NCBI GenBank assembly: GCA_964565665.1
Contig: CAZMFZ010000001.1
Coordinates: 6,668 to 70,667, forward strand
From: an uncultured Bifidobacteriaceae bacterium
Lineage (GTDB): Bacteria > Bacteroidota > Bacteroidia > Cytophagales > UBA9547
DNA length: 64,000 nucleotides
Reading direction: 5' to 3'
Both the position numbers and the translations under genes were made by a program. Under the pieces are notes generated by a model. The model was given only the letters and a program-made list of their open reading frames with translations, did no database searches and was not told where the DNA came from. Shown piece by piece: positions 3,423 to 63,855 of the stretch; the stretch's first letter is position 1, and each line of letters opens with the position of its first letter.

Positions 3423-5076
3423 ACGAAACGCCTTTCATCGTTAGTTTTGTACCATCTTTACTGGACACTTGAATTACTTTATTCCCATTTAAAAGCAATG
3501 TTTTCTTGCCCAATTTTACAGGCACTTCTACTTCCACATCTTGTCCTGAAGGGTTCACCGCTACCAGCACTTTTTCGCCTTGTTTCTCTCTCAAAAATAC
3601 GAAAGGATATTTATCTTTCTCAGCATACAAAATTTTGAAATCGGCATCGGCATCAAGTGCAATTTGATTTCTACGAGTATTCACCAATTTCTTTGTTTTA
3701 TTTAATAATGATGTTACGTTTTTATCTTGTTCGCTTGCGTTGGGAGATTTCGAAGCAGTATCAATGCCAAGCCAAAGTTTATTTGCTTGTGCTTTAGAAA
3801 ACCCTTTATTTTCCGCATTCGACCATTGCATAGGTGTTCTCGCACCCGAACGGGGAGGATAGCAGCCCTCAACTGAGGGTTGACCGTAAAGTTGTTTCAT
3901 CCCAATTTCATCGCCATAATAAATAAATGGCACACCAGGCATACACATTTGAAAAGCGTATATAAGTTCTAATTCTTCATCTGTACGATTTACGTTTATT
4001 CTTGACAAATCATGATTTCCGACAGGTAAAGAAATAAATCCTTTGCCTTTCGTGGCTTCATAATGCATATTGTATGCTTTCAAAAAAGCTGAAATATCGC
4101 CTTTGCCCTTTATATCAAACCAACTGTTGCCATCTCCCGATACATTATTGAGGTTTCTATTGGCTTCTTTTCTGAAAAGATTGTCATATTCGGGAATCCA
4201 ATGTAGAAAATCGGCTGTGAATCCGGCCTTAATAGCATCGATAGGATACGACCACTCCGATACCATGAATGCTTGCGGATAATCAGTATCTAACATTTGC
4301 TTTACTTCTTGCCAAAATTTAAAGCCTTCGCCATTTTTATCTTTGCGAATAATTGAGCCTGCCATATCTACCCTAAATCCATCGCAACCCATGTCGAGCC
4401 AATACCTCATTATTTTTTTCATCTCATCTCTCAATGCCATCACATCGGGGTGGGTAGCTGATAGCTGCCATTTTTGAGTTGTATCCGGTTCGCCATAGCC
4501 AAAGTTAAGTGCTGGTTGATGCCAGAAAAAGTTAGTCATATAGTTGCCATCACGCTCAGAAAAGCCGTTTATCATACCGCGACCTTTTTCTTTCCCCCCA
4601 TCGTTCCATGTTGAATTTGTCCAGATATACCAGTTTGAATATTTATTTTTCTCAGCTTTGGCCGATTCTTTAAACCAAGCATGGTCGATAGAAGTGTGCC
4701 CAGGTACAAAATCTACAATTACGCGTAAGCCACGTTTGTGTGCCTCTTCAAATAGTTTCTTGGTATCGTCAGTATTGCCATATCGGCTTGCTACTTTGTA
4801 ATAGTCGCTTACATCGTAGCCTGCATCTTTAAAGGGCGATTCGTAAAACGGATTGAGCCAAATGGCGCTTACGCCAAGGCTTTTCACATAATCAAGTTTT
4901 TCGATAATGCCTTTCAAATCGCCAATACCATCGGCATTGGTATCGTAAAAAGATTGGGGATAAATTTCATAAAATACAGCCGACTTTACCCAGCTTGGAA
5001 TGTGTGGGGCTGCATTTTGCGCTTGAATGAAAATACAAATTGTAAATGTTAAAAATGCTGCAAAGATGGTTTTCAT
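3400..5076 (-). CDS. secreted GH13 alpha-amylase-family glycosidase (alpha-glucosidase/oligo-1,6-glucosidase-like)
   Basis: It carries FYEIYPQSFYDTNADGIGDLKGIIEKLDYVKSLGVSAIWLNPFYESP, GLRVIVDFVPGHTS and GCDGFRVDMA, the classic GH13 conserved regions. The start is trimmed to MKTIFAAFLTFTICIFIQAQN (signal peptide) at 5076 rather than the TTG at 5133. Confidence 0.85.
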   Translation of the reverse strand: MKTIFAAFLTFTICIFIQAQNAAPHIPSWVKSAVFYEIYPQSFYDTNADGIGDLKGIIEKLDYVKSLGVSAIWLNPFYESPFKDAGYDVSDYYKVASRYGNTDDTKKLFEEAHKRGLRVIVDFVPGHTSIDHAWFKESAKAEKNKYSNWYIWTNSTWNDGGKEKGRGMINGFSERDGNYMTNFFWHQPALNFGYGEPDTTQKWQLSATHPDVMALRDEMKKIMRYWLDMGCDGFRVDMAGSIIRKDKNGEGFKFWQEVKQMLDTDYPQAFMVSEWSYPIDAIKAGFTADFLHWIPEYDNLFRKEANRNLNNVSGDGNSWFDIKGKGDISAFLKAYNMHYEATKGKGFISLPVGNHDLSRINVNRTDEELELIYAFQMCMPGVPFIYYGDEIGMKQLYGQPSVEGCYPPRSGARTPMQWSNAENKGFSKAQANKLWLGIDTASKSPNASEQDKNVTSLLNKTKKLVNTRRNQIALDADADFKILYAEKDKYPFVFLREKQGEKVLVAVNPSGQDVEVEVPVKLGKKTLLLNGNKVIQVSSKDGTKLTMKGVSYAIYRVL

Positions 5077-56918: not shown

Positions 56919-57371
56919 ATGCAAGCTACTAGGAAAAATTCTGCACGCATCTTTGAAAAATTCTCTACCCTGGCTACCAAAGCAACAGGCACACCTTTGG
57001 CATTTATTTTTGCATTTGGTATAATATTAATTTGGGGAATAACAGGTCCTTTTTTCAATTTCTCAGATACATGGCAATTGGTGATAAACACTAGCACTAC
57101 CATTATTACCTTCTTAATGGTATTTTTAATTCAACAATCGCAAAACAAAGACACTACTGCCATTCAACTCAAGCTCAATGAACTTATAGCTGCAAATAAG
57201 CATACCAGCAACCGATTAATTGATATTGAAGACCTTTCGGATGAGGAATTAAATGAACTAAAAAAGTTTTATGTTCGATTGTCTGAGCTATCAAAAGGCG
57301 AGAATAGCTTTTTCAAGTCACACTCTTTAGATGAAGCCGAGAAGATACACGTTAAAAAGTTTGGTAAATAA
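56919..57371 (+). CDS. low-affinity iron permease family protein
   Basis: ...GTPLAFIFAFGIILIWGITGPFFNFSDTWQLVINTSTTIITFLMVFLIQQSQNKDTTAIQLKLNELI is characteristic of this family. Confidence 0.75.
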   Translation: MQATRKNSARIFEKFSTLATKATGTPLAFIFAFGIILIWGITGPFFNFSDTWQLVINTSTTIITFLMVFLIQQSQNKDTTAIQLKLNELIAANKHTSNRLIDIEDLSDEELNELKKFYVRLSELSKGENSFFKSHSLDEAEKIHVKKFGK

Positions 57372-57390: not shown

Positions 57391-58395
57391 TTATTCAAAA
57401 TTATAAACCACACCCAGCATCAGCCTACCAGCATTGCCTATTACCTGGCCGTTTAGTTTTTCTGCATAAGGTTTTTGAAAAAGGGTTTGTACAATAAACT
57501 GTTTGTACATGATATCAATCCCTGCTTGATAAAACCAAGTATAACCTCCTGTAAATTCCCTGATATTGCCATTGAGTTTATCTCTTTCAGAAAACTCATA
57601 ATAATTTCCAATCTTAGGTAAAAAGCTAATTTCATTTATTTTAAGGGTGTAATAAAAGTTTGCCATCGCATTCCACTTGTTGCCAAACTGTACATTATTT
57701 TCGCCTTTGGTGCAATACCGATAATTTAAAAATACATCTGCACCCCATTTATCGTTGGTAATCAGATAATTAAGGCGAGCAATAATATCAACACTGCTTG
57801 TACCAGGCTGGATGTCGTAGCCATAAGTTTTGCTGTTTGCACCTGCATTGTATTTTCCAGTAGGTATTTTCAACCCTAAACCGGGTTTTACAATATGCTT
57901 TATCCAGCCTGTTTCAAATGTATGGGTGTAATCAGCTGCCACAATAGCATCGCCAAAACCATTGATATTAAAACTCGAATCTTTGACCGGATATGGCGAT
58001 TGCCATACTTGTTTGTAATACAATTGGCTATGTACATATGGGATAATCAATTGGAAATTCCAATGCTTTTTATAGGCATAATTACCGCGTAACTCAATGG
58101 TTTGGTACATTTCAAAATCATTTTTATGATTGAAAAATTGCGTCCCTTCCTCTTCAGGCACATGATTTTCTCTGGCATTTGCAGCTTGTAAAGAAGCTGG
58201 ATTAATATAATATCGATTGGGTTCGCTTTTATAATCGTAGCCATTGAAAAATCTTTGCCTATAAAATACCCCTACATAACTTTGATTTCTGCGATTGGCA
58301 TACTCGAAAATATTGCAGATGTCGCATGACGAAGATAAATTCGAAATGGTGATTGCAAAAAATAATAAACTATGTCTTGTAAATAAAGTTTGCAT
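57391..58395 (-). CDS. putative outer-membrane beta-barrel protein with N-terminal CxxC
   Basis: Signal sequence ending ..NLSSSCDICN, then alternating aromatic/glycine strand patterns through to ...GRLMLGVVYNFE. It is the last gene of the MbnP/peroxidase cluster, 11 nt after the peroxidase stop. Confidence 0.5.
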   Translation of the reverse strand: MQTLFTRHSLLFFAITISNLSSSCDICNIFEYANRRNQSYVGVFYRQRFFNGYDYKSEPNRYYINPASLQAANARENHVPEEEGTQFFNHKNDFEMYQTIELRGNYAYKKHWNFQLIIPYVHSQLYYKQVWQSPYPVKDSSFNINGFGDAIVAADYTHTFETGWIKHIVKPGLGLKIPTGKYNAGANSKTYGYDIQPGTSSVDIIARLNYLITNDKWGADVFLNYRYCTKGENNVQFGNKWNAMANFYYTLKINEISFLPKIGNYYEFSERDKLNGNIREFTGGYTWFYQAGIDIMYKQFIVQTLFQKPYAEKLNGQVIGNAGRLMLGVVYNFE

Positions 58396-58406
58396 TAATA
58401 AATGTC

Positions 58407-59438
58407 TTAATTTAATGATTGGGATGTAAATTCATAATCATCAAGTGTCTTTAAGAATATTTTCAGGTCTTCGATTTCAACAATAGAAAGTTGAAACCCG
58501 GGTTTAGGGATTTTCTCATCAAGCGTTGCCGAATATTTTATTCCACTATTATAGTGTGTTAATACTTCATCAATGTTGGCAAATCGGCCATCATGCATGT
58601 AGGGCGCTGTGAAGGATAAATTTCGCAATGAAGGAGTTTTGAATTTGCCTACATCCACAATATTACCAGTAATTCTATACCTGCCCTTATGAATATTTTC
58701 GTGGCTATTATCATTAAAACTACTGTCTAAGCCATTGTTATGAAAATCAAAATCGGTAAAGAAATCGGCTTTGTGGCAGCTTTCGCATTTGCTTTTAAAT
58801 ATTTCCAAACCTTTCAATTCTTGCAAAGTCAATATTTCTCCTTCCAATCTCACATATTTGTCATATTTGGAATTAGCTGAAATAAGCGAACGCTCAAATT
58901 GAGCAATAGCATGCACCAATAAAGTGGTGTTGATGGAATCCACTCCAAATGCCTCTTTAAATAATATAGGATATTTTGCGGAAAGGCGAAGCTCAGTTAT
59001 TAATTCACTCAAGTTTTGCTTCATTTCATCTTCGTGCTGCAAAGGAGCAAATACTTGTGATTCAAGATTTTTAGCTCCACCATCTGCAAAATAGCCCTTT
59101 GCCCAAGCTATATTGAATAATGCTGGTGCATTTCTTAACATTGGTATTCCTGAAATACCTTTGTTTGAGAAAGCCAATCCATCGGAAAACGCCTTGTCAG
59201 CATGGTGACAAGCAGCACAGGCTATTGTATTATTCCCAGACAAAATAGGGTCGAAAAACAATTTCTTTCCTAATGCTATTCCTTTTACAGTAGCGCGATT
59301 ATCTGTAGGTTGTGGCAATTCAGTGGAAAAATTCTTAGGCACTTCAATTGCGATAGATGAATTTGGCTGCAAAATTTCACCATCTTGTGAACAAGAGTAC
59401 ATAAAAATTAAAAAAACAAGAAACACAAGTTTTTTCAA
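58407..59438 (-). CDS. di-haem cytochrome c peroxidase (MauG/MbnH-like) lipoprotein
   Basis: Two haem-binding motifs, CAACHH and CESCHK. Lipobox ..FMYSCSQ. Its size and the ...FKTPSLRNLSFTAPYMHDGRF region are typical of the CCP/MauG family. Confidence 0.85.
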   Translation of the reverse strand: MKKLVFLVFLIFMYSCSQDGEILQPNSSIAIEVPKNFSTELPQPTDNRATVKGIALGKKLFFDPILSGNNTIACAACHHADKAFSDGLAFSNKGISGIPMLRNAPALFNIAWAKGYFADGGAKNLESQVFAPLQHEDEMKQNLSELITELRLSAKYPILFKEAFGVDSINTTLLVHAIAQFERSLISANSKYDKYVRLEGEILTLQELKGLEIFKSKCESCHKADFFTDFDFHNNGLDSSFNDNSHENIHKGRYRITGNIVDVGKFKTPSLRNLSFTAPYMHDGRFANIDEVLTHYNSGIKYSATLDEKIPKPGFQLSIVEIEDLKIFLKTLDDYEFTSQSLN

Positions 59439-59588
59439 AAACCGAGAAATTTTAAGCTTGAATAGAATGTATGGCGGAATGATAAACCTAATTTATTACC
59501 AATCCAATACCGAAAGCTATCGATACCGGATTGGGCAAATAATCTAGAATACAACTCAATGTGTGGCCACATTGATTGGTAATTCAAT

Positions 59589-60434
59589 TTATTCCTCATC
59601 TGCCTGATGCACATGATGTAGTAAAAATACGCCATTTTTTTGTGCATAGTTATCAGCAATTTTAGAGGCCAAAGCAGCATCAACCATTGGGCTGTTGCTT
59701 ACTTTTAAATCAAGTACATTTGTTTCCGCCCCGATGCTACCAAATACACCTAAAAAATTGTTTTTGAAGTGTAGTTCTGGCGATCCTGTTTTCACTACTT
59801 TGGTATTTTCTGGCAAATCAAATGTAAGGGTTTTGTAGTTGGCATCTAAGCCTATATGGTATGAATAGTAACCATATTTACCCGTGCTTATTTCGTATCG
59901 CCCTTCCATTTTCATGAAAATATAACCAGTATTCCAAGTCCAACTCATACCTATTGTCTCGCTCAAATCGCCAGTTTTTTTTGTTAAATCATGGTTTCTA
60001 ATTTCATCTACACCTATGCTGTATGAAATTTTAGAATAACTGCCTACTGGCACACCAGTAATTTCGATATCTTCTTTAATACTTTTGGGGGTATATTCTA
60101 TTAAATGATAACTATTTGGCTCACTAAAGGATTTGCCCAAACTATCGGTAAGCACAATATTGCTAATCCAATACCTCACACTGTTTATAGTGATTTTATT
60201 TCCCGCAGCATTAGTATAGATATTAGTAAGTGCGGTTGTAGAATCCTTGATGCCAGAATTGTCTAAATTTAATTTTGTATACACACCCTCTTTTAATGTT
60301 TGGGTATCAAAATACAAACTTACCTTTCCAGTATCAGTAGGCTTCGGGTCGTCTTTTTTGGTATCTTTTGTACACGACCAATAAGTAACCAATATTGAAA
60401 TAATTAGAAATGTGTTTTTCATTTTGTTTTTCAT
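59589..60434 (-). CDS. MbnP-like lipoprotein (paralog 2)
   Basis: Lipobox ..TYWSCTKD. Motifs RYWISNIVLTD, YSIGVDEIRNH, MSWTWNTGYIFMKMEG and YSYHIGLDANYKTLTFDL are shared with the upstream paralog. As I recall, they also match the MbnP family that pairs with MbnH-type peroxidases. Confidence 0.6.
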   Translation of the reverse strand: MKNKMKNTFLIISILVTYWSCTKDTKKDDPKPTDTGKVSLYFDTQTLKEGVYTKLNLDNSGIKDSTTALTNIYTNAAGNKITINSVRYWISNIVLTDSLGKSFSEPNSYHLIEYTPKSIKEDIEITGVPVGSYSKISYSIGVDEIRNHDLTKKTGDLSETIGMSWTWNTGYIFMKMEGRYEISTGKYGYYSYHIGLDANYKTLTFDLPENTKVVKTGSPELHFKNNFLGVFGSIGAETNVLDLKVSNSPMVDAALASKIADNYAQKNGVFLLHHVHQADEE

Positions 60435-60476
60435 TTTGTTTAATTTTTAAATTAAAGTGTAAAATTATTTTTTGAA

Positions 60477-61220
60477 TTAAGGATTTACGATTTTGCTGAT
60501 AGAAAACATGCCTGCTGCATAATTCGAGCCAATCTTGTCAGCATCAGAATTTTGCATGGCTTGGTCCACCTCATCAAAATCTATTAAATAAGGGCTTCTG
60601 AACATACCATTAATATTCACCTTCACCTTGATTATGGAAGTTTTACCAGCCTCTATTTTCAAGTTCGAACTTAAATTGAAACTCAAAGATTTATAATTTT
60701 TGTCTTCACCTACATGAAATACTAACGCCCCATTTTTCGTAGGTGTTACATACTCTCCTTCAAGTAGTAGAAATTTGTAGCCCGTATTCCAATCCCATGT
60801 CATGCCACTACCTGGTGCTAATTCACCCAAATGGACAGTACTATGGTTATTTACAGAATCCACACCTATATCAAAACTTAAATTGGAATAATTGCCAACT
60901 TCTATACTATCGATTATGAAAGCTTTTTTAATAAATTCTGATGTATAGCTTATCAGGTTATAATTTTCCTTTTTAATAAAATTTAATCCTACTGCACTTA
61001 ATGATCTAAAATGAACAAAAAACTTAAATTGCTCAATTAAAAAAGTGTCGTTAGCAGGCGACAGATATTGTTTGGTATACAATTCTAAAGGAATAGTATC
61101 GATGTAGGGTTCAAAAACCAATTGAAGCTTACCTGTTTTTATTAGCATAGGTTCTACAGCTTTATCTTGTTTACAGGCATAGACAAGCAGGAGTACCCCC
61201 AAAAGTGTAACTTTTTTCAT
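60477..61220 (-). CDS. MbnP-like lipoprotein (paralog 1)
   Basis: Lipobox ..LVYACKQD, then FDIGVDSVNNH, MTWDWNTGYKFLLLEG and LVFHVGEDKNYKSLSFNL. Confidence 0.6.
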   Translation of the reverse strand: MKKVTLLGVLLLVYACKQDKAVEPMLIKTGKLQLVFEPYIDTIPLELYTKQYLSPANDTFLIEQFKFFVHFRSLSAVGLNFIKKENYNLISYTSEFIKKAFIIDSIEVGNYSNLSFDIGVDSVNNHSTVHLGELAPGSGMTWDWNTGYKFLLLEGEYVTPTKNGALVFHVGEDKNYKSLSFNLSSNLKIEAGKTSIIKVKVNINGMFRSPYLIDFDEVDQAMQNSDADKIGSNYAAGMFSISKIVNP

Positions 61221-61328
61221 CAGCTTTGAAATTGAATAATAGATAAAATTAAAGGATAGAATATTCCAAAAAACACTGAGATTGTGTTTTATATACTAAA
61301 ATATTAATGGAATAAAATATAAAATGTA

Positions 61329-61703
61329 CTAAGCGACAATTGGCGGCTTATTGAGGGAAGTAAAAAAATCAGAGCTATTATAGCAATTCTTAGTAAAATA
61401 TTTTTGAAGTGAAAAAATACTAGGATTTAGTAGCACAAATTCATTTGAAACTGAGGTAAATTCAAATGAAAGATTGAGATTTTGAAGGCTATTTTCATTC
61501 CCTTTTGCTTGTTCGGCTTTTTTTAAGGTTTTATTTAGGTGACATTTGCCATTACATTTCAATTTGGGTTTGGCTTTATTTACGCAAAAATTTTGGGTGA
61601 AATAGGTTTTATTGGCTTCATAAGTCAGTTGCAAAATGCCCACAGAAAACATATTGACTGATAATAAAAAAATTAGACTAAAAGCAATTGCCTTTTGAAA
61701 CAT
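61329..61703 (-). CDS. hypothetical membrane-anchored protein with C-x9-C-x3-C-H motif
   Basis: N-terminal TM segment (AIAFSLIFLLSVNMFSVGIL), then FCVNKAKPKLKCNGKCHLNKTLKK. It is the first gene of the cluster, 108 nt upstream of MbnP-like paralog 1. Confidence 0.45.
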   Translation of the reverse strand: MFQKAIAFSLIFLLSVNMFSVGILQLTYEANKTYFTQNFCVNKAKPKLKCNGKCHLNKTLKKAEQAKGNENSLQNLNLSFEFTSVSNEFVLLNPSIFSLQKYFTKNCYNSSDFFTSLNKPPIVA

Positions 61704-61839
61704 GAAGCAAATATAGGATAATTTAGAATGAAGAGATTGTTAATACGTTGTTTTTAACAATGTTTTTAAAACTCATTATCAAATGGATGTTATAGTATAC
61801 TAAATTGAATCGGTAAATCAAGTGAAATTTTAGCAACGA

Positions 61840-63855
61840 ATGACTATAAGAACTACACTCCTACTTGTTTATATTACATTTTTGCCATTTCTACTGTATT
61901 CGGCTGACGATATATATGATATTTCTAAAAACATTGCCTCTGAAAGCCAAAAACCTTATTTAAAAATATTTGCAGACTCTTCAAAGAATATAAGCTTACA
62001 TGATATATCCAAAGAAAATAGTGGTGTTAAATTTATTCCTTTCGATAAAAAACACATTAATTCTAATATAAAAACCCATTGGCTTCAATTAAAGGTAGAC
62101 AATTCTTCATTATTTACTCAAACCAAATATTTTGGGTTTGGCGATGCTATCGAGTATATTACTTTATTTGAGTTCAAAAATGATAGTTTGATAAATTGTA
62201 TGCTTTTGGGTTCAAAAATCCCCGTTGATAATAGAGAAATAAAAACAGGCAGGGATAATATTTTCAAAATTACTATTCCTAAAAAATCTACCCGCACTTT
62301 TTATATTAAGCTTGAGAACGAATCGCGGTTTGCCAAGCAATTTTTAGGTTATTTATCTGAATATTTTATAGTTTATAGTCCATCCTTTTTTGAAAGTAAT
62401 TTTACAAAAGGCAGAATATTCAATTCGTTTTATTATGGGGCTATTTTCATTATGTTTTTTTATAATTTGTTTTTGGCATTCTCGCTCCGCAGTAGGGAAT
62501 ATGCAGCCTATGTGGCCTTTACTGTAGCCTTTTTTATCTTTAATTTATTTTCGGATGGCTACCCCTCCGAGACAATATTTGCCCATTTGCCCAATAGAGA
62601 CCGTTTGCTGCGGATATTTGTAGCACCCACTACGTTCATAGCTTATATAGTATTTAGCCGCATTTATCTTAAAACAAAAACTATCACGCCCCGAGCAGAT
62701 AAGCTATATTTTGTATTGGTGGTACTGTTGGCTTCGTGTTATATACCCATAGCTATGGGGCATTGGTGGATAGGAAGAAACCTGATGACATATATACTAA
62801 TTGCATTCATAGCCTATTATGCAGTGGTATCAGTTGTGTGCTATAAAAGAGGGTATAAACCTGCACTTTTCTATATTGTGGGCAATGCAATGCTGCTGGT
62901 TTCCGGATTGATATATGGACTCTACTTACTGGCCTTCATTCCTCACAATGGCTATACAAGAATAGTAGAATATTTGCCTCAAGTTGGCTCCATATTCGAG
63001 CTGGCTTTCTTTTCGTTGGGCTTGGCTCAAAGAATAAAAATAGCAGAAAATGCTAAATCGATGGCTCAGTTACAAACCATAGAGGCCATGACGGAGAATA
63101 AGCATATTTTACTGATGCAAAATGAAATATTGGAAACCAAGGTAACGCAAAGAACCGAAGATTTATTTGTGGCCAATAGAGAGCTAAATGGTGCGAATAC
63201 TGAGCTTAAGAAGACTGTGCAACAGATTGAAACAGAACGAAAGAGAATAGACCAATTGCTTCTAAATATATTGCCGAAAGAAATAGTGCTGGAGCTGAAA
63301 CAAAAAGGGACAGCCGTACCTCGACATTATGAGATGGTAAGCGTATTATTTGCCGATTTGGTGAATTTTACCTCGTACGCTGCCAAATTGCCTCCAGCAG
63401 AAATAACCAAGAAACTCGATACACTATTTTACGAATTTGATAAAATATGTGCCAATAATAGCCTTGAAAAGATTAAAACTATAGGGGATTGCTATATGGC
63501 AGCCGGGGGATTGCCCTTAAGCAACGCTACCAACGCCTTAGATGCAGTGAAAACGGCCTTGGCGATGATAGAAGTAATTAAAGATTCGGAATGGCAATTA
63601 AGAATAGGCATACATACTGGGGCTGTGGTTGCTGGTGTAATCGGCATAAACAAATTTGCATATGATATTTGGGGCGATGTAGTGAACATAGCTTCCAGGC
63701 TAGAATCGACCAGTGAAAATAATAGGATAAATATATCGAAGGAGACCTATTTGCTGGTGAAAGATGAGATAAGTTGCGAATATCGGGGTAAACTGGCCGC
63801 AAAAAACAAGGGAGAAATAGATATGTATTTCGTGCAAGCCACAGATACTGTTTAA
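61840..63855 (+). CDS. 7TMR-DISM receptor fused to a class III adenylate/guanylate cyclase domain
   Basis: An N-terminal extracellular domain, seven TM helices and a coiled coil, then VSVLFADLVNFTSYA...KIKTIGDCYMAAGGLP...LRIGIHTGAVVAGVIG.NKFAYDIWGDVVNIASRLES. Confidence 0.85.
   Translation: MTIRTTLLLVYITFLPFLLYSADDIYDISKNIASESQKPYLKIFADSSKNISLHDISKENSGVKFIPFDKKHINSNIKTHWLQLKVDNSSLFTQTKYFGFGDAIEYITLFEFKNDSLINCMLLGSKIPVDNREIKTGRDNIFKITIPKKSTRTFYIKLENESRFAKQFLGYLSEYFIVYSPSFFESNFTKGRIFNSFYYGAIFIMFFYNLFLAFSLRSREYAAYVAFTVAFFIFNLFSDGYPSETIFAHLPNRDRLLRIFVAPTTFIAYIVFSRIYLKTKTITPRADKLYFVLVVLLASCYIPIAMGHWWIGRNLMTYILIAFIAYYAVVSVVCYKRGYKPALFYIVGNAMLLVSGLIYGLYLLAFIPHNGYTRIVEYLPQVGSIFELAFFSLGLAQRIKIAENAKSMAQLQTIEAMTENKHILLMQNEILETKVTQRTEDLFVANRELNGANTELKKTVQQIETERKRIDQLLLNILPKEIVLELKQKGTAVPRHYEMVSVLFADLVNFTSYAAKLPPAEITKKLDTLFYEFDKICANNSLEKIKTIGDCYMAAGGLPLSNATNALDAVKTALAMIEVIKDSEWQLRIGIHTGAVVAGVIGINKFAYDIWGDVVNIASRLESTSENNRINISKETYLLVKDEISCEYRGKLAAKNKGEIDMYFVQATDTV

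Follow-up and report, generated by a model that had tools for sequence, protein, structure and literature searches.

A five-gene MbnP/MbnH-like cluster of the Bacteroidota headed by a candidate copper-sensing leader peptide

The locus

The window analysed here is a stretch of 64,000 nucleotides (nt) from contig CAZMFZ010000001.1 of an uncultured bacterium with a GTDB lineage in the Bacteroidota (assembly GCA_964565665.1), and the subject is a cluster of five genes contained in it. Read along the minus strand, the genes code for a small protein with three cysteines, two MbnP-like lipoproteins, a di-haem enzyme resembling MbnH and a beta-barrel protein (Table 1). An earlier note, made from the sequence alone, had described five co-directional genes, and all of them were found at exactly the positions that it gave. 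Profile and model comparisons support the view that the cluster is a Bacteroidota variant of the MbnP/MbnH system, with putatively lipidated and duplicated MbnP proteins, an MbnH-like enzyme and a Cys-tipped barrel instead of a TonB transporter. The small first gene, called the leader open reading frame (ORF) below, belongs to a family that precedes many different operons, and probably codes for a copper-sensing arrest peptide. Related loci are designated by L numbers.

Table 1. Genes and sequence features of the cluster and of its borders, with positions in the window (aa, amino acids)
Feature	Position	Strand	Remarks
Bacteroidetes-type -7 promoter box TATATTTG (TAnnTTTG)	61708..61715	minus	4 nt upstream of the leader ATG at 61703
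Leader ORF (small Cys protein)	61329..61703	minus	124 aa; 108 nt to next gene
Codons of the Cys motif C40-x9-C50-x3-C54-H55	61539..61586	minus	three Cys invariant family-wide
Codons of P120-P121 (CCG CCA), proposed ribosome-stalling site	61341..61346	minus	three residues before stop
Leader-to-MbnP spacer	61221..61328	minus	108 nt, A+T-rich; weak hairpin AAAACAC-7 nt-GTGTTTT, then TTGG, at 61266-61290
MbnP-like lipoprotein 1	60477..61220	minus	247 aa; 42 nt to next gene; lipobox Cys16; candidate copper-site residues by alignment to 7L6G: M140, W142 (W-x-W with W144), H169
MbnP-like lipoprotein 2	59589..60434	minus	281 aa; 150 nt to next gene; lipobox Cys21; candidate copper-site residues by alignment to 7L6G: M163, W165 (W-x-W with W167), H193
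Terminator-like hairpin	59556..59575	minus	8-bp stem, 3 G-C pairs; in the 150-nt gap behind the second MbnP gene
MbnH-like (MauG-family) di-haem lipoprotein	58407..59438	minus	343 aa, TTG start; 11 nt to next gene
Outer-membrane beta-barrel	57391..58395	minus	334 aa; last of the five genes
7TMR-DISM / guanylate_cyc protein (Pfam)	61840-63855		divergent neighbour
150-aa gene	56919-57371	plus	convergent with the barrel gene; recorded as PF04120 (Iron_permease family) in identical metagenome contigs

MbnP-like lipoproteins and di-haem enzyme

The two lipoproteins are paralogs (31% identity, E = 3e-35), each carrying a lipobox and sharing the motifs IGVD, GM(S/T)W(T/D)WNTGY and (Y/F)H(I/V)G, as the earlier note had observed. 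Both were recognized by the Pfam MbnP family (PF20243, gathering score 27), with 117.5 bits for the 247-aa and 131.8 bits for the 281-aa paralog. A profile built from 32 Bacteroidota homologues matched the MbnP crystal structure 7L6G (E = 8e-5), the resulting alignment placing 'GMmWsWstGYkF' over 'GMAWNWQAGRRF' (motif 'GMAWNW') and 'fHiGs' over 'HVGS'. The W-x-W and His positions, pointed out earlier as conserved in both paralogs, therefore align with the motifs of 7L6G. Throughout the 32 sequences the first Trp of W-x-W is invariant, and the Met, the second Trp and the His are nearly so; in a second alignment (A7), W165, W167 and H193 are all invariant. The copper site of MbnP consists of His, Met, water and kynurenine-174, the latter derived from the conserved WxW Trp (PMC11951088); the candidate ligands listed in Table 1 were obtained from this description and mapped by alignment, not from the 7L6G coordinates.

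The fold was evaluated on the 281-aa paralog. Its AlphaFold2 model reached a predicted local distance difference test score (pLDDT) of 84.8, and when it was compared with the PDB by Foldseek, 7L6G was the only match (six chains, E about 1e-8, probability 1.0, template modelling (TM) score about 0.5). Family and fold matches together bear out the assignment of the two lipoproteins to MbnP. The sole conserved Cys of the Bacteroidota alignment is that of the lipobox, and the four Cys of the methanotroph type are absent. On the profile and model comparisons, both lipoproteins are thus best described as real but divergent members of the MbnP family, predicted to be lipidated and devoid of the four methanotroph Cys. 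Neither could be designated as the 'canonical' MbnP, both being about equally far from single-copy relatives. No paper on Bacteroidota MbnP was found in the literature searched.

The lipobox of the 343-aa enzyme reads MYSC, its two CxxCH sites are C74AACH and C218ESCH, and it matches CCP_MauG (PF03150) with 176 bits, as expected for the two-haem lipoprotein of CCP/MauG type that had been predicted. Its likeness to MbnH was equally upheld: the best NCBIfam match was TIGR04039, the MbnH family (223.5 bits, under the 362.85 cut-off), ahead of MauG (181.3 bits), and the closest solved relative is MbnH 6E1C (E = 6.5e-40). Y296, in THYNSG, falls on the 'DIYSEG' Tyr of MbnH, and alignments with CcP give no matching Met; in the MauG type, the distal position of the second haem is taken by a Tyr rather than a Met. 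In the identical metagenome contigs L093 and L094 the gene is called from an internal ATG (MYSCSQ...), producing a protein of 331 aa that lacks the signal peptide of a lipoprotein; if the TTG at 59438 is taken as the start, MKKLVFLVFLIFMYSC is regained.

The reference system is the MbnP/MbnH pair of Methylosinus trichosporium OB3b (PDB 7L6G and 6E1C; Kenney 2019, Manesis 2021, summarised in PMC11951088). The window shares with it the MbnP fold, the GM-W-x-W and H-x-G positions and a MauG-like partner that is nearest to MbnH. It differs in that the MbnP proteins are predicted to be lipidated, are duplicated and lack the four Cys after which TIGR04052 was first named; a small barrel serves as outer-membrane partner where methanotrophs have the TonB-dependent MbnT, and there are no methanobactin genes. 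The MbnP/MbnH assignment is supported at the level of family and fold, not at that of equivalogs.

The outer-membrane barrel

The 334-aa protein was modelled by AlphaFold2 as an all-beta barrel (mean pLDDT 83.4). The closest solved folds identified by Foldseek were the COG4313 channel 4RL8 (E = 3e-11) and FapF 5O67 (8e-11), with target-normalised TM scores of 0.64-0.71 and a sequence identity of 12-14%; the beta-barrel suspected in the earlier note is in this way borne out as a fold of the outer-membrane kind. The window protein matched no Pfam or NCBIfam family. Among its relatives, one gave a weak match to Phenol_MetA_deg (PF13557; 14.6 bits, the gathering score being 22), and 3 out of 18 matched weakly the FapF model of NCBIfam, the best E-value being 5e-6. 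The barrel thus resembles the COG4313 channel (Pput2725, 4RL8) and FapF (5O65/5O67) in fold and in the weak profile matches of its relatives; unlike these families, it possesses an invariant N-terminal C-D-x-C and is associated with MbnP/MbnH. This motif, contained in the N-terminal sequence ..SSSC24DIC27N, is invariant at C24, D25 and C27 in 18 homologues. Judging from its position, it may lie at the mature N-terminus, with Cys24 either lipidated or left as free N-terminal residue once the signal is cleaved off.

A barrel homologue, 47% identical, is found in L001 (8001-9011) without MbnP, CCP_MauG or leader ORF, next to an other-strand cluster of a Plug/TonB receptor, DUF4154 and GAF. A 109-aa gene precedes it and was considered as a leader; it turned out to be no leader homologue, so that the barrel family also occurs outside this type of operon. 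In addition, a lipoprotein of about 130 aa, His-rich (4.3% His) and weakly matching Ig-like/DUF4625 models, was found in L007 (9526-9918), L042 (9539-9931) and 7 other loci, always directly behind the barrel in leader-barrel-130aa operons that lack CCP_MauG.

The leader ORF family

The 124-aa leader protein displays a hydrophobic N-terminal segment, the motif C40-x9-C50-x3-C54-H55, already recognized from the sequence, and the C-terminal residues N-K-P-P-I-V-A. The alignment of 87 family members contains the invariant columns C40, N42, P46, C50, G52, C54, P120 and P121, and the family is described by the invariant signature C-x-N-x2-K-P-x3-C-x-G-x-C. A His follows the third Cys in 74 of 89 loci and in 116 of 146 cluster representatives; in the rest of the 89 loci its place is taken by Y, F, E, V or Q. 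For the 'extra Cys/His protein' of the earlier note, the three Cys are accordingly confirmed as a family feature and the His is not. A reading of CxxxCH as a variant c-type haem site was rejected as well, because the His is replaced in about 20% of the members while the three Cys are invariant.

The Pro-Pro pair is located 1-9 residues before the stop codon, mostly 2-4, in 89/89 loci, and is present in 145 of the 146 representatives. The distance between the third Cys and the pair varies from 63 to 76 residues (median 68), the linker itself being variable in sequence. The tail reads FHPP in 94/146 representatives and otherwise FRPP, FQPP or FKPP, whereas NKPP is found in the window.

A word-indexed search retrieved 22 relatives. 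When one genome of each species was scanned for the pattern, at least 563 loci were confirmed; the best 80 of these all belong to the Bacteroidota, with the exception of one metagenome-assembled genome labelled Kuenenia. When 1.84 billion cluster representatives were scanned by HMMER, 7,469 leader clusters (50% identity) were obtained at E <= 1e-3 and 4,622 at E <= 1e-10, those listed being all about 110-150 aa long. No relevant Pfam or NCBIfam model matches the window protein or its 86 relatives. In L092 the leader ORF is present (4344-4742) and was left uncalled in the assembly annotation; gene callers sometimes miss the family, and its annotation in public genomes is probably incomplete. 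Some genomes contain two leader ORFs in tandem modules, as in L003 (4045-4479 and 5653-6075), L012 (6926-7993), L040 and L060.

Genomic contexts

The genes located behind the leader were surveyed for 86 distinct leader ORFs in sampled Bacteroidota loci, the family labels being confirmed by Pfam. MbnP is found in 32 of the 86 loci, together with CCP_MauG in 21 and with both CCP_MauG and the barrel in 16; barrels of this family are found in 30. TonB-dependent receptors (TBDTs) occur in 33 loci, lipoproteins with a YtkA domain, usually in the order YtkA-TBDT, in 19, TBDT-PepSY_TM pairs in 3, and a Met-rich (8.4% Met) barrel-like protein in 4. The YtkA partners contain 5.7% Met.

The full five-gene set, duplicated MbnP included, was found in L092, where the barrel is 65% identical to that of the window. 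Since the same set recurs in this relative, and leader-MbnP-CCP_MauG-barrel in the 16 loci mentioned above, the arrangement is not a matter of chance. In L003 and L012 a leader-CCP_MauG module is followed by leader-MbnP-CCP_MauG-barrel, while L005 contains MbnP-CCP_MauG-barrel with no leader ORF detected on the same-strand side. The survey of co-occurrence suggested in the earlier note therefore shows that the module recurs across Bacteroidota. In most of the sampled loci the enzyme gene lies next to that of MbnP.

The leader ORF is nearly always the first cistron of the sampled operons; only in L003 and L040 does a second copy lie downstream of another same-strand gene. The unrelated cargo found behind it argues against a specific partner of one machine, and the ORF is better read as a leader that heads many different metal-uptake operons than as a dedicated fifth structural component of the cluster.

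Promoter and intergenic regions

A TAnnTTTG box, presumably the -7 promoter consensus of Bacteroides and Flavobacterium studies, precedes the codon of the first Cys by 105-160 nt in 59/86 leader loci, as compared with about 4 expected (an estimate from base composition). In about 24 of 58 unique sequences, the window included, the start codon follows the box by 4-5 nt. With the start codon just behind the promoter box, the small ORF is the first cistron, and its mRNA is probably leaderless or near-leaderless. An 'ATCA' element some 25 nt ahead of the -7 box, recurrent by eye, showed no fixed position or information content and was discarded.

The ability of the leader spacer to fold was compared with that of shuffled sequences, and was no better (z = -0.78); no conservation was detected with the L092 spacer. 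For these two reasons an RNA element in the spacer is not established. Weak terminator-like hairpins are present in only 24/76 leader spacers, and Rfam produced no matches. For the hairpin located between the second MbnP gene and the enzyme gene, evidence is weak, since a scan of the region with the terminator consensus found 5 sites against 3.3 expected; it could possibly set a higher MbnP-to-enzyme ratio.

Comparison with CruR and CutF

Two described regulators resemble the leader. CruR of Bordetella pertussis, a DUF2946 protein, is encoded by an upstream ORF with an export signal, a CXXC motif and a RAPP sequence placed three residues before the stop codon and 45 residues from CXXC; its nascent chain acts as the copper sensor and governs Rho-dependent termination ahead of bfrG, coding for a TBDT, and bp2921 (Roy et al., PMC9426467). 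Homologues of CruR head operons with TBDTs, PCuAC, YcnI, CopC and MbnPH-like genes (PMC9426467). The arrest was confirmed in vitro (Fujiwara et al., PMC12992588), and upstream ORFs with RAPP/RGPP beside copper genes were reported to be absent from the Bacteroidota (PMC12992588). CutF of Rhodobacter capsulatus combines a Sec signal, CxxxC and a Pro-rich C-terminus, and stalls on periplasmic copper (Öztürk et al., PMC9973294; further source, bioRxiv 10.1101/2025.02.05.636593). As copper rises it turns on a detoxifying oxidase, by melting a stem-loop over the ribosome-binding site of the next gene (PMC9973294).

Like CruR, the leader is small, with a hydrophobic N-terminus, an invariant Cys motif and x-x-P-P about 3 residues before the stop codon; the spacing between Cys and PP is constrained, the ORF is the first of operons with TonB receptors, PepSY or MbnPH-like genes, and the intergenic gap that follows is non-trivial. 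The leader-TBDT-PepSY architecture is that of B. pertussis cruR-bfrG-bp2921 (PMC9426467). Unlike the CruR operon, those of the leader family are rich in A+T, and a C-rich Rho site is not evident in them.

With CutF the leader shares C50-x3-C54, which is a CxxxC, the C-terminal Pro motif, a signal-like N-terminus and a size below 150 aa; it differs in that the cargo is of the uptake type and no such stem-loop is detectable in the spacer. A catalogue of 5,334 'CutF-like' proteins, 19% of which come from Bacteroidota, with TonB-like neighbours, was assembled from proteins that are shorter than 150 aa, begin with a signal, have PP in their last 15 residues and are followed on the same strand by another gene at no more than 1,000 nt, CxxxC being added in the seed rule (PMC9973294). 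The window leader has 124 aa, PP at 120-121 and a gene 108 nt downstream; its N-terminus is hydrophobic, and a cleavable signal is not evident. With these values the leader family may already be in the published list, unnamed there. The concept of an arrest peptide and a bioinformatic catalogue of such peptides thus already exist, and the family itself is without a Pfam or NCBIfam model.

Proposed function

From the observed gene order, family and fold assignments, conservation and spacing of motifs, promoter position and operon contexts, we infer ribosome stalling, the identity of the metal, the direction of regulation, kynurenine formation and the substrate of the barrel. The leader is read as regulatory because its Cys motif, spacer, PP, promoter position and operon contexts follow the logic of CruR and CutF. 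The resulting proposal, an operon for copper handling at the envelope provided with a copper-sensing arrest-peptide leader of this kind, is assigned a probability of roughly 0.55.

In this proposal, the whole region would be transcribed as one operon from the promoter that abuts the small ORF. Each MbnP-like lipoprotein would bear the conserved Met / Trp-x-Trp / His site, the first Trp of which would be oxidised to kynurenine by the MbnH-like enzyme, completing a copper site as in methanotrophs. The barrel with Cys-Asp-x-Cys would provide an outer-membrane path for the metal or for a metal-ligand complex, standing in for the TonB-dependent transporter found with MbnPH in Proteobacteria. The first cistron would stand outside this cargo machinery as a leader peptide of the CruR/CutF kind: a ribosome translating it would pause at (F/N)-(H/R/K)-P-P, a few codons ahead of the stop, when the three-Cys motif, about 67 residues upstream, would already be out of the exit tunnel. 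Binding of Cu(I) to the Cys motif would alter the length of the pause and, by this means, the amount of the downstream operon that is transcribed or translated. Since the cargo of the leader family is of the import type (TonB receptors, PepSY, YtkA, MbnPH, barrels), a polarity like that of CruR is expected, with expression of the operon at low copper and its shutdown at high copper. Copper as the metal is hinted at by the Met content of the YtkA partners and of one partner barrel, and by the all-thiol nature of the sensor.

Several observations weigh against this reading. The motif of the leader is C-x9-C-x3-C, as opposed to the CXXC of CruR, its tail is F-H/R-P-P (N-K-P-P in the window), as opposed to RAPP/RGPP, and the distance between Cys and PP is about 67 residues versus 45. 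None of the 87 members matches Pfam DUF2946 (PF11162), even at E <= 10; membership of that family was rejected, and homology of the leader to CruR or CutF is consequently without support from the sequence. The segment behind the hydrophobic stretch is Lys-rich, which makes the membrane topology ambiguous. Neither a conserved RNA switch or attenuator nor a clear terminator was found behind the leader ORF, and some leader loci leave almost no gap to the next gene (-7 to 11 nt). As to the lipoproteins, the profile check proposed in the earlier note was well passed for PF20243 but not for the NCBIfam equivalog TIGR04052 (MbnP_like_WxW, the methanotroph 'four-Cys' type), with 40.5 and 34.3 bits under a cut-off of 140 and matches spanning only the central 70-75 residues. 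Finally, unlike MbnH, the window enzyme has an Ala (Ala118, Y-F-A-D-G-G) at the position of the F-W-D-G Trp, presumably the residue that separates the two haems of MauG and bCcP; this Trp is kept by 21 of 23 enzymes of related operons. The same Ala is seen in two independent metagenome assemblies (L093, L094), and the closest relative, in L092 (6839-7909), has a His. Duplicated MbnP is known from three loci, the window, L092 and L020, the last having an Arg at the Trp position in one of its two CCP_MauG proteins. MauG-type chemistry is therefore less certain for this particular enzyme.

The first alternative to be considered is that the 124-aa protein is a stable, membrane-anchored metal-binding part, such as a Cys3 metallochaperone or a thiol-redox partner, working with MbnP, MbnH and the barrel, its C-terminal Pro-Pro being structural or a docking or degradation signal. 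The hydrophobic N-terminal anchor and the three invariant Cys would suit such a protein, as would its constant location on the same strand as envelope metal genes, and the minimal gaps reported above fit the translational coupling of a true subunit. However, a subunit would hardly be expected ahead of cargo as unrelated as YtkA-TBDT, TBDT-PepSY, barrel-Ig130 and MbnP-CCP_MauG. The linker from Cys to PP, unconserved in sequence and constrained in length, the position of the ORF directly behind the promoter box, almost always as first cistron (the second copies of L003 and L040 excepted), and its occasional omission by gene callers, as in L092, also speak against this explanation, which is considered unlikely.

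Still less likely is an operon devoted to another metal or substrate, such as iron, haem or zinc uptake or a peroxide-linked envelope redox process, with the MbnP fold reused for another ligand. The lack of the four methanotroph Cys, the scores below the equivalog cut-off, the missing F-W-D-G Trp and the gene of the PF04120 iron-permease family convergent with the barrel gene point in this direction, and TBDT-PepSY pairs are also found in siderophore-iron systems. Against it, the Met, Trp and His positions aligned with 7L6G are kept in both paralogs and family-wide, partner families under the leader are Met-rich or contain YtkA, a domain linked to Cu(I), and an all-thiol sensor motif favours Cu(I) over Fe.

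An improbable variant, refining the copper proposal without replacing it, would make the MbnP paralogs surface lipoproteins that pass a ligand to the barrel in a SusD/SusC- or HmuY-like manner, after maturation by the enzyme in the periplasm before export: the pairing of MbnP genes with an outer-membrane barrel and the acidic residues behind the lipobox Cys in 21/31 MbnP-like proteins (e.g. CSSDDD, CKKDE; CTKDTKKDD in the window), which resemble the Bacteroidota lipoprotein export signal, agree with it, but the closest solved folds of the barrel are small channels unlike a SusC-type transporter, and the acidic pattern may not discriminate, since it is shared by 15/20 di-haem enzymes, which need periplasmic haem attachment.

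If the copper-handling proposal with an arrest-peptide leader is correct, the leader would be a widespread regulator of Bacteroidota metal-uptake operons and a new sequence class for studies on ribosome stalling. A broader claim is made more tentatively, at less than even odds: the leader could define a metal-sensing arrest class extending over the Bacteroidota, unrelated in sequence to DUF2946 and borne by leaderless or near-leaderless mRNAs, that gates most copper-uptake operons, with and without TonB. In that case both the stalling motif and the rule for its spacing would be new, and surveys keyed on RAPP/RGPP would for this reason have found no copper-linked upstream ORFs in Bacteroidota (PMC12992588). 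Lipidated MbnP pairs and a Cys-tipped barrel would, in turn, represent a TonB-independent copper route into these bacteria. Copper entry is poorly understood in Bacteroidota, for which the locus offers a concrete and recurrent gene set, and the MbnP/MbnH pair, possibly with its kynurenine-based copper site, is extended from methanotrophs to another phylum and envelope context. The annotation of genomes would gain from a model of the leader family.

Neighbouring genes and a further partner

The cluster is separated from the divergent 7TMR-DISM cyclase by a gap of 136 bp; both the size of the gap and the Pfam identity of the protein agree with the earlier note, which had also hinted at co-regulation. 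No homologue of the cyclase was found near any of 91 related loci, so that the hint is without comparative support and was dropped; in L003, an unrelated 7TMR-DISM histidine kinase lies about 6 kb away.

The Met-rich protein recorded in the census forms a family of 353-356 aa with no Pfam match, and is encoded directly behind the leader in L047 (7566-8636), L038 (8553-9614), L064 (8561-9622) and L039 (8491-9552). It is barrel-like in appearance, with an N-terminal C-x3-C-x-C and stretches such as MNMQMHMLMGMYG and HDHSMPGMEM, and is a candidate Cu(I) channel. Behind it, 3 of the 4 loci encode an MbnP-like protein and small cytochrome-like proteins.

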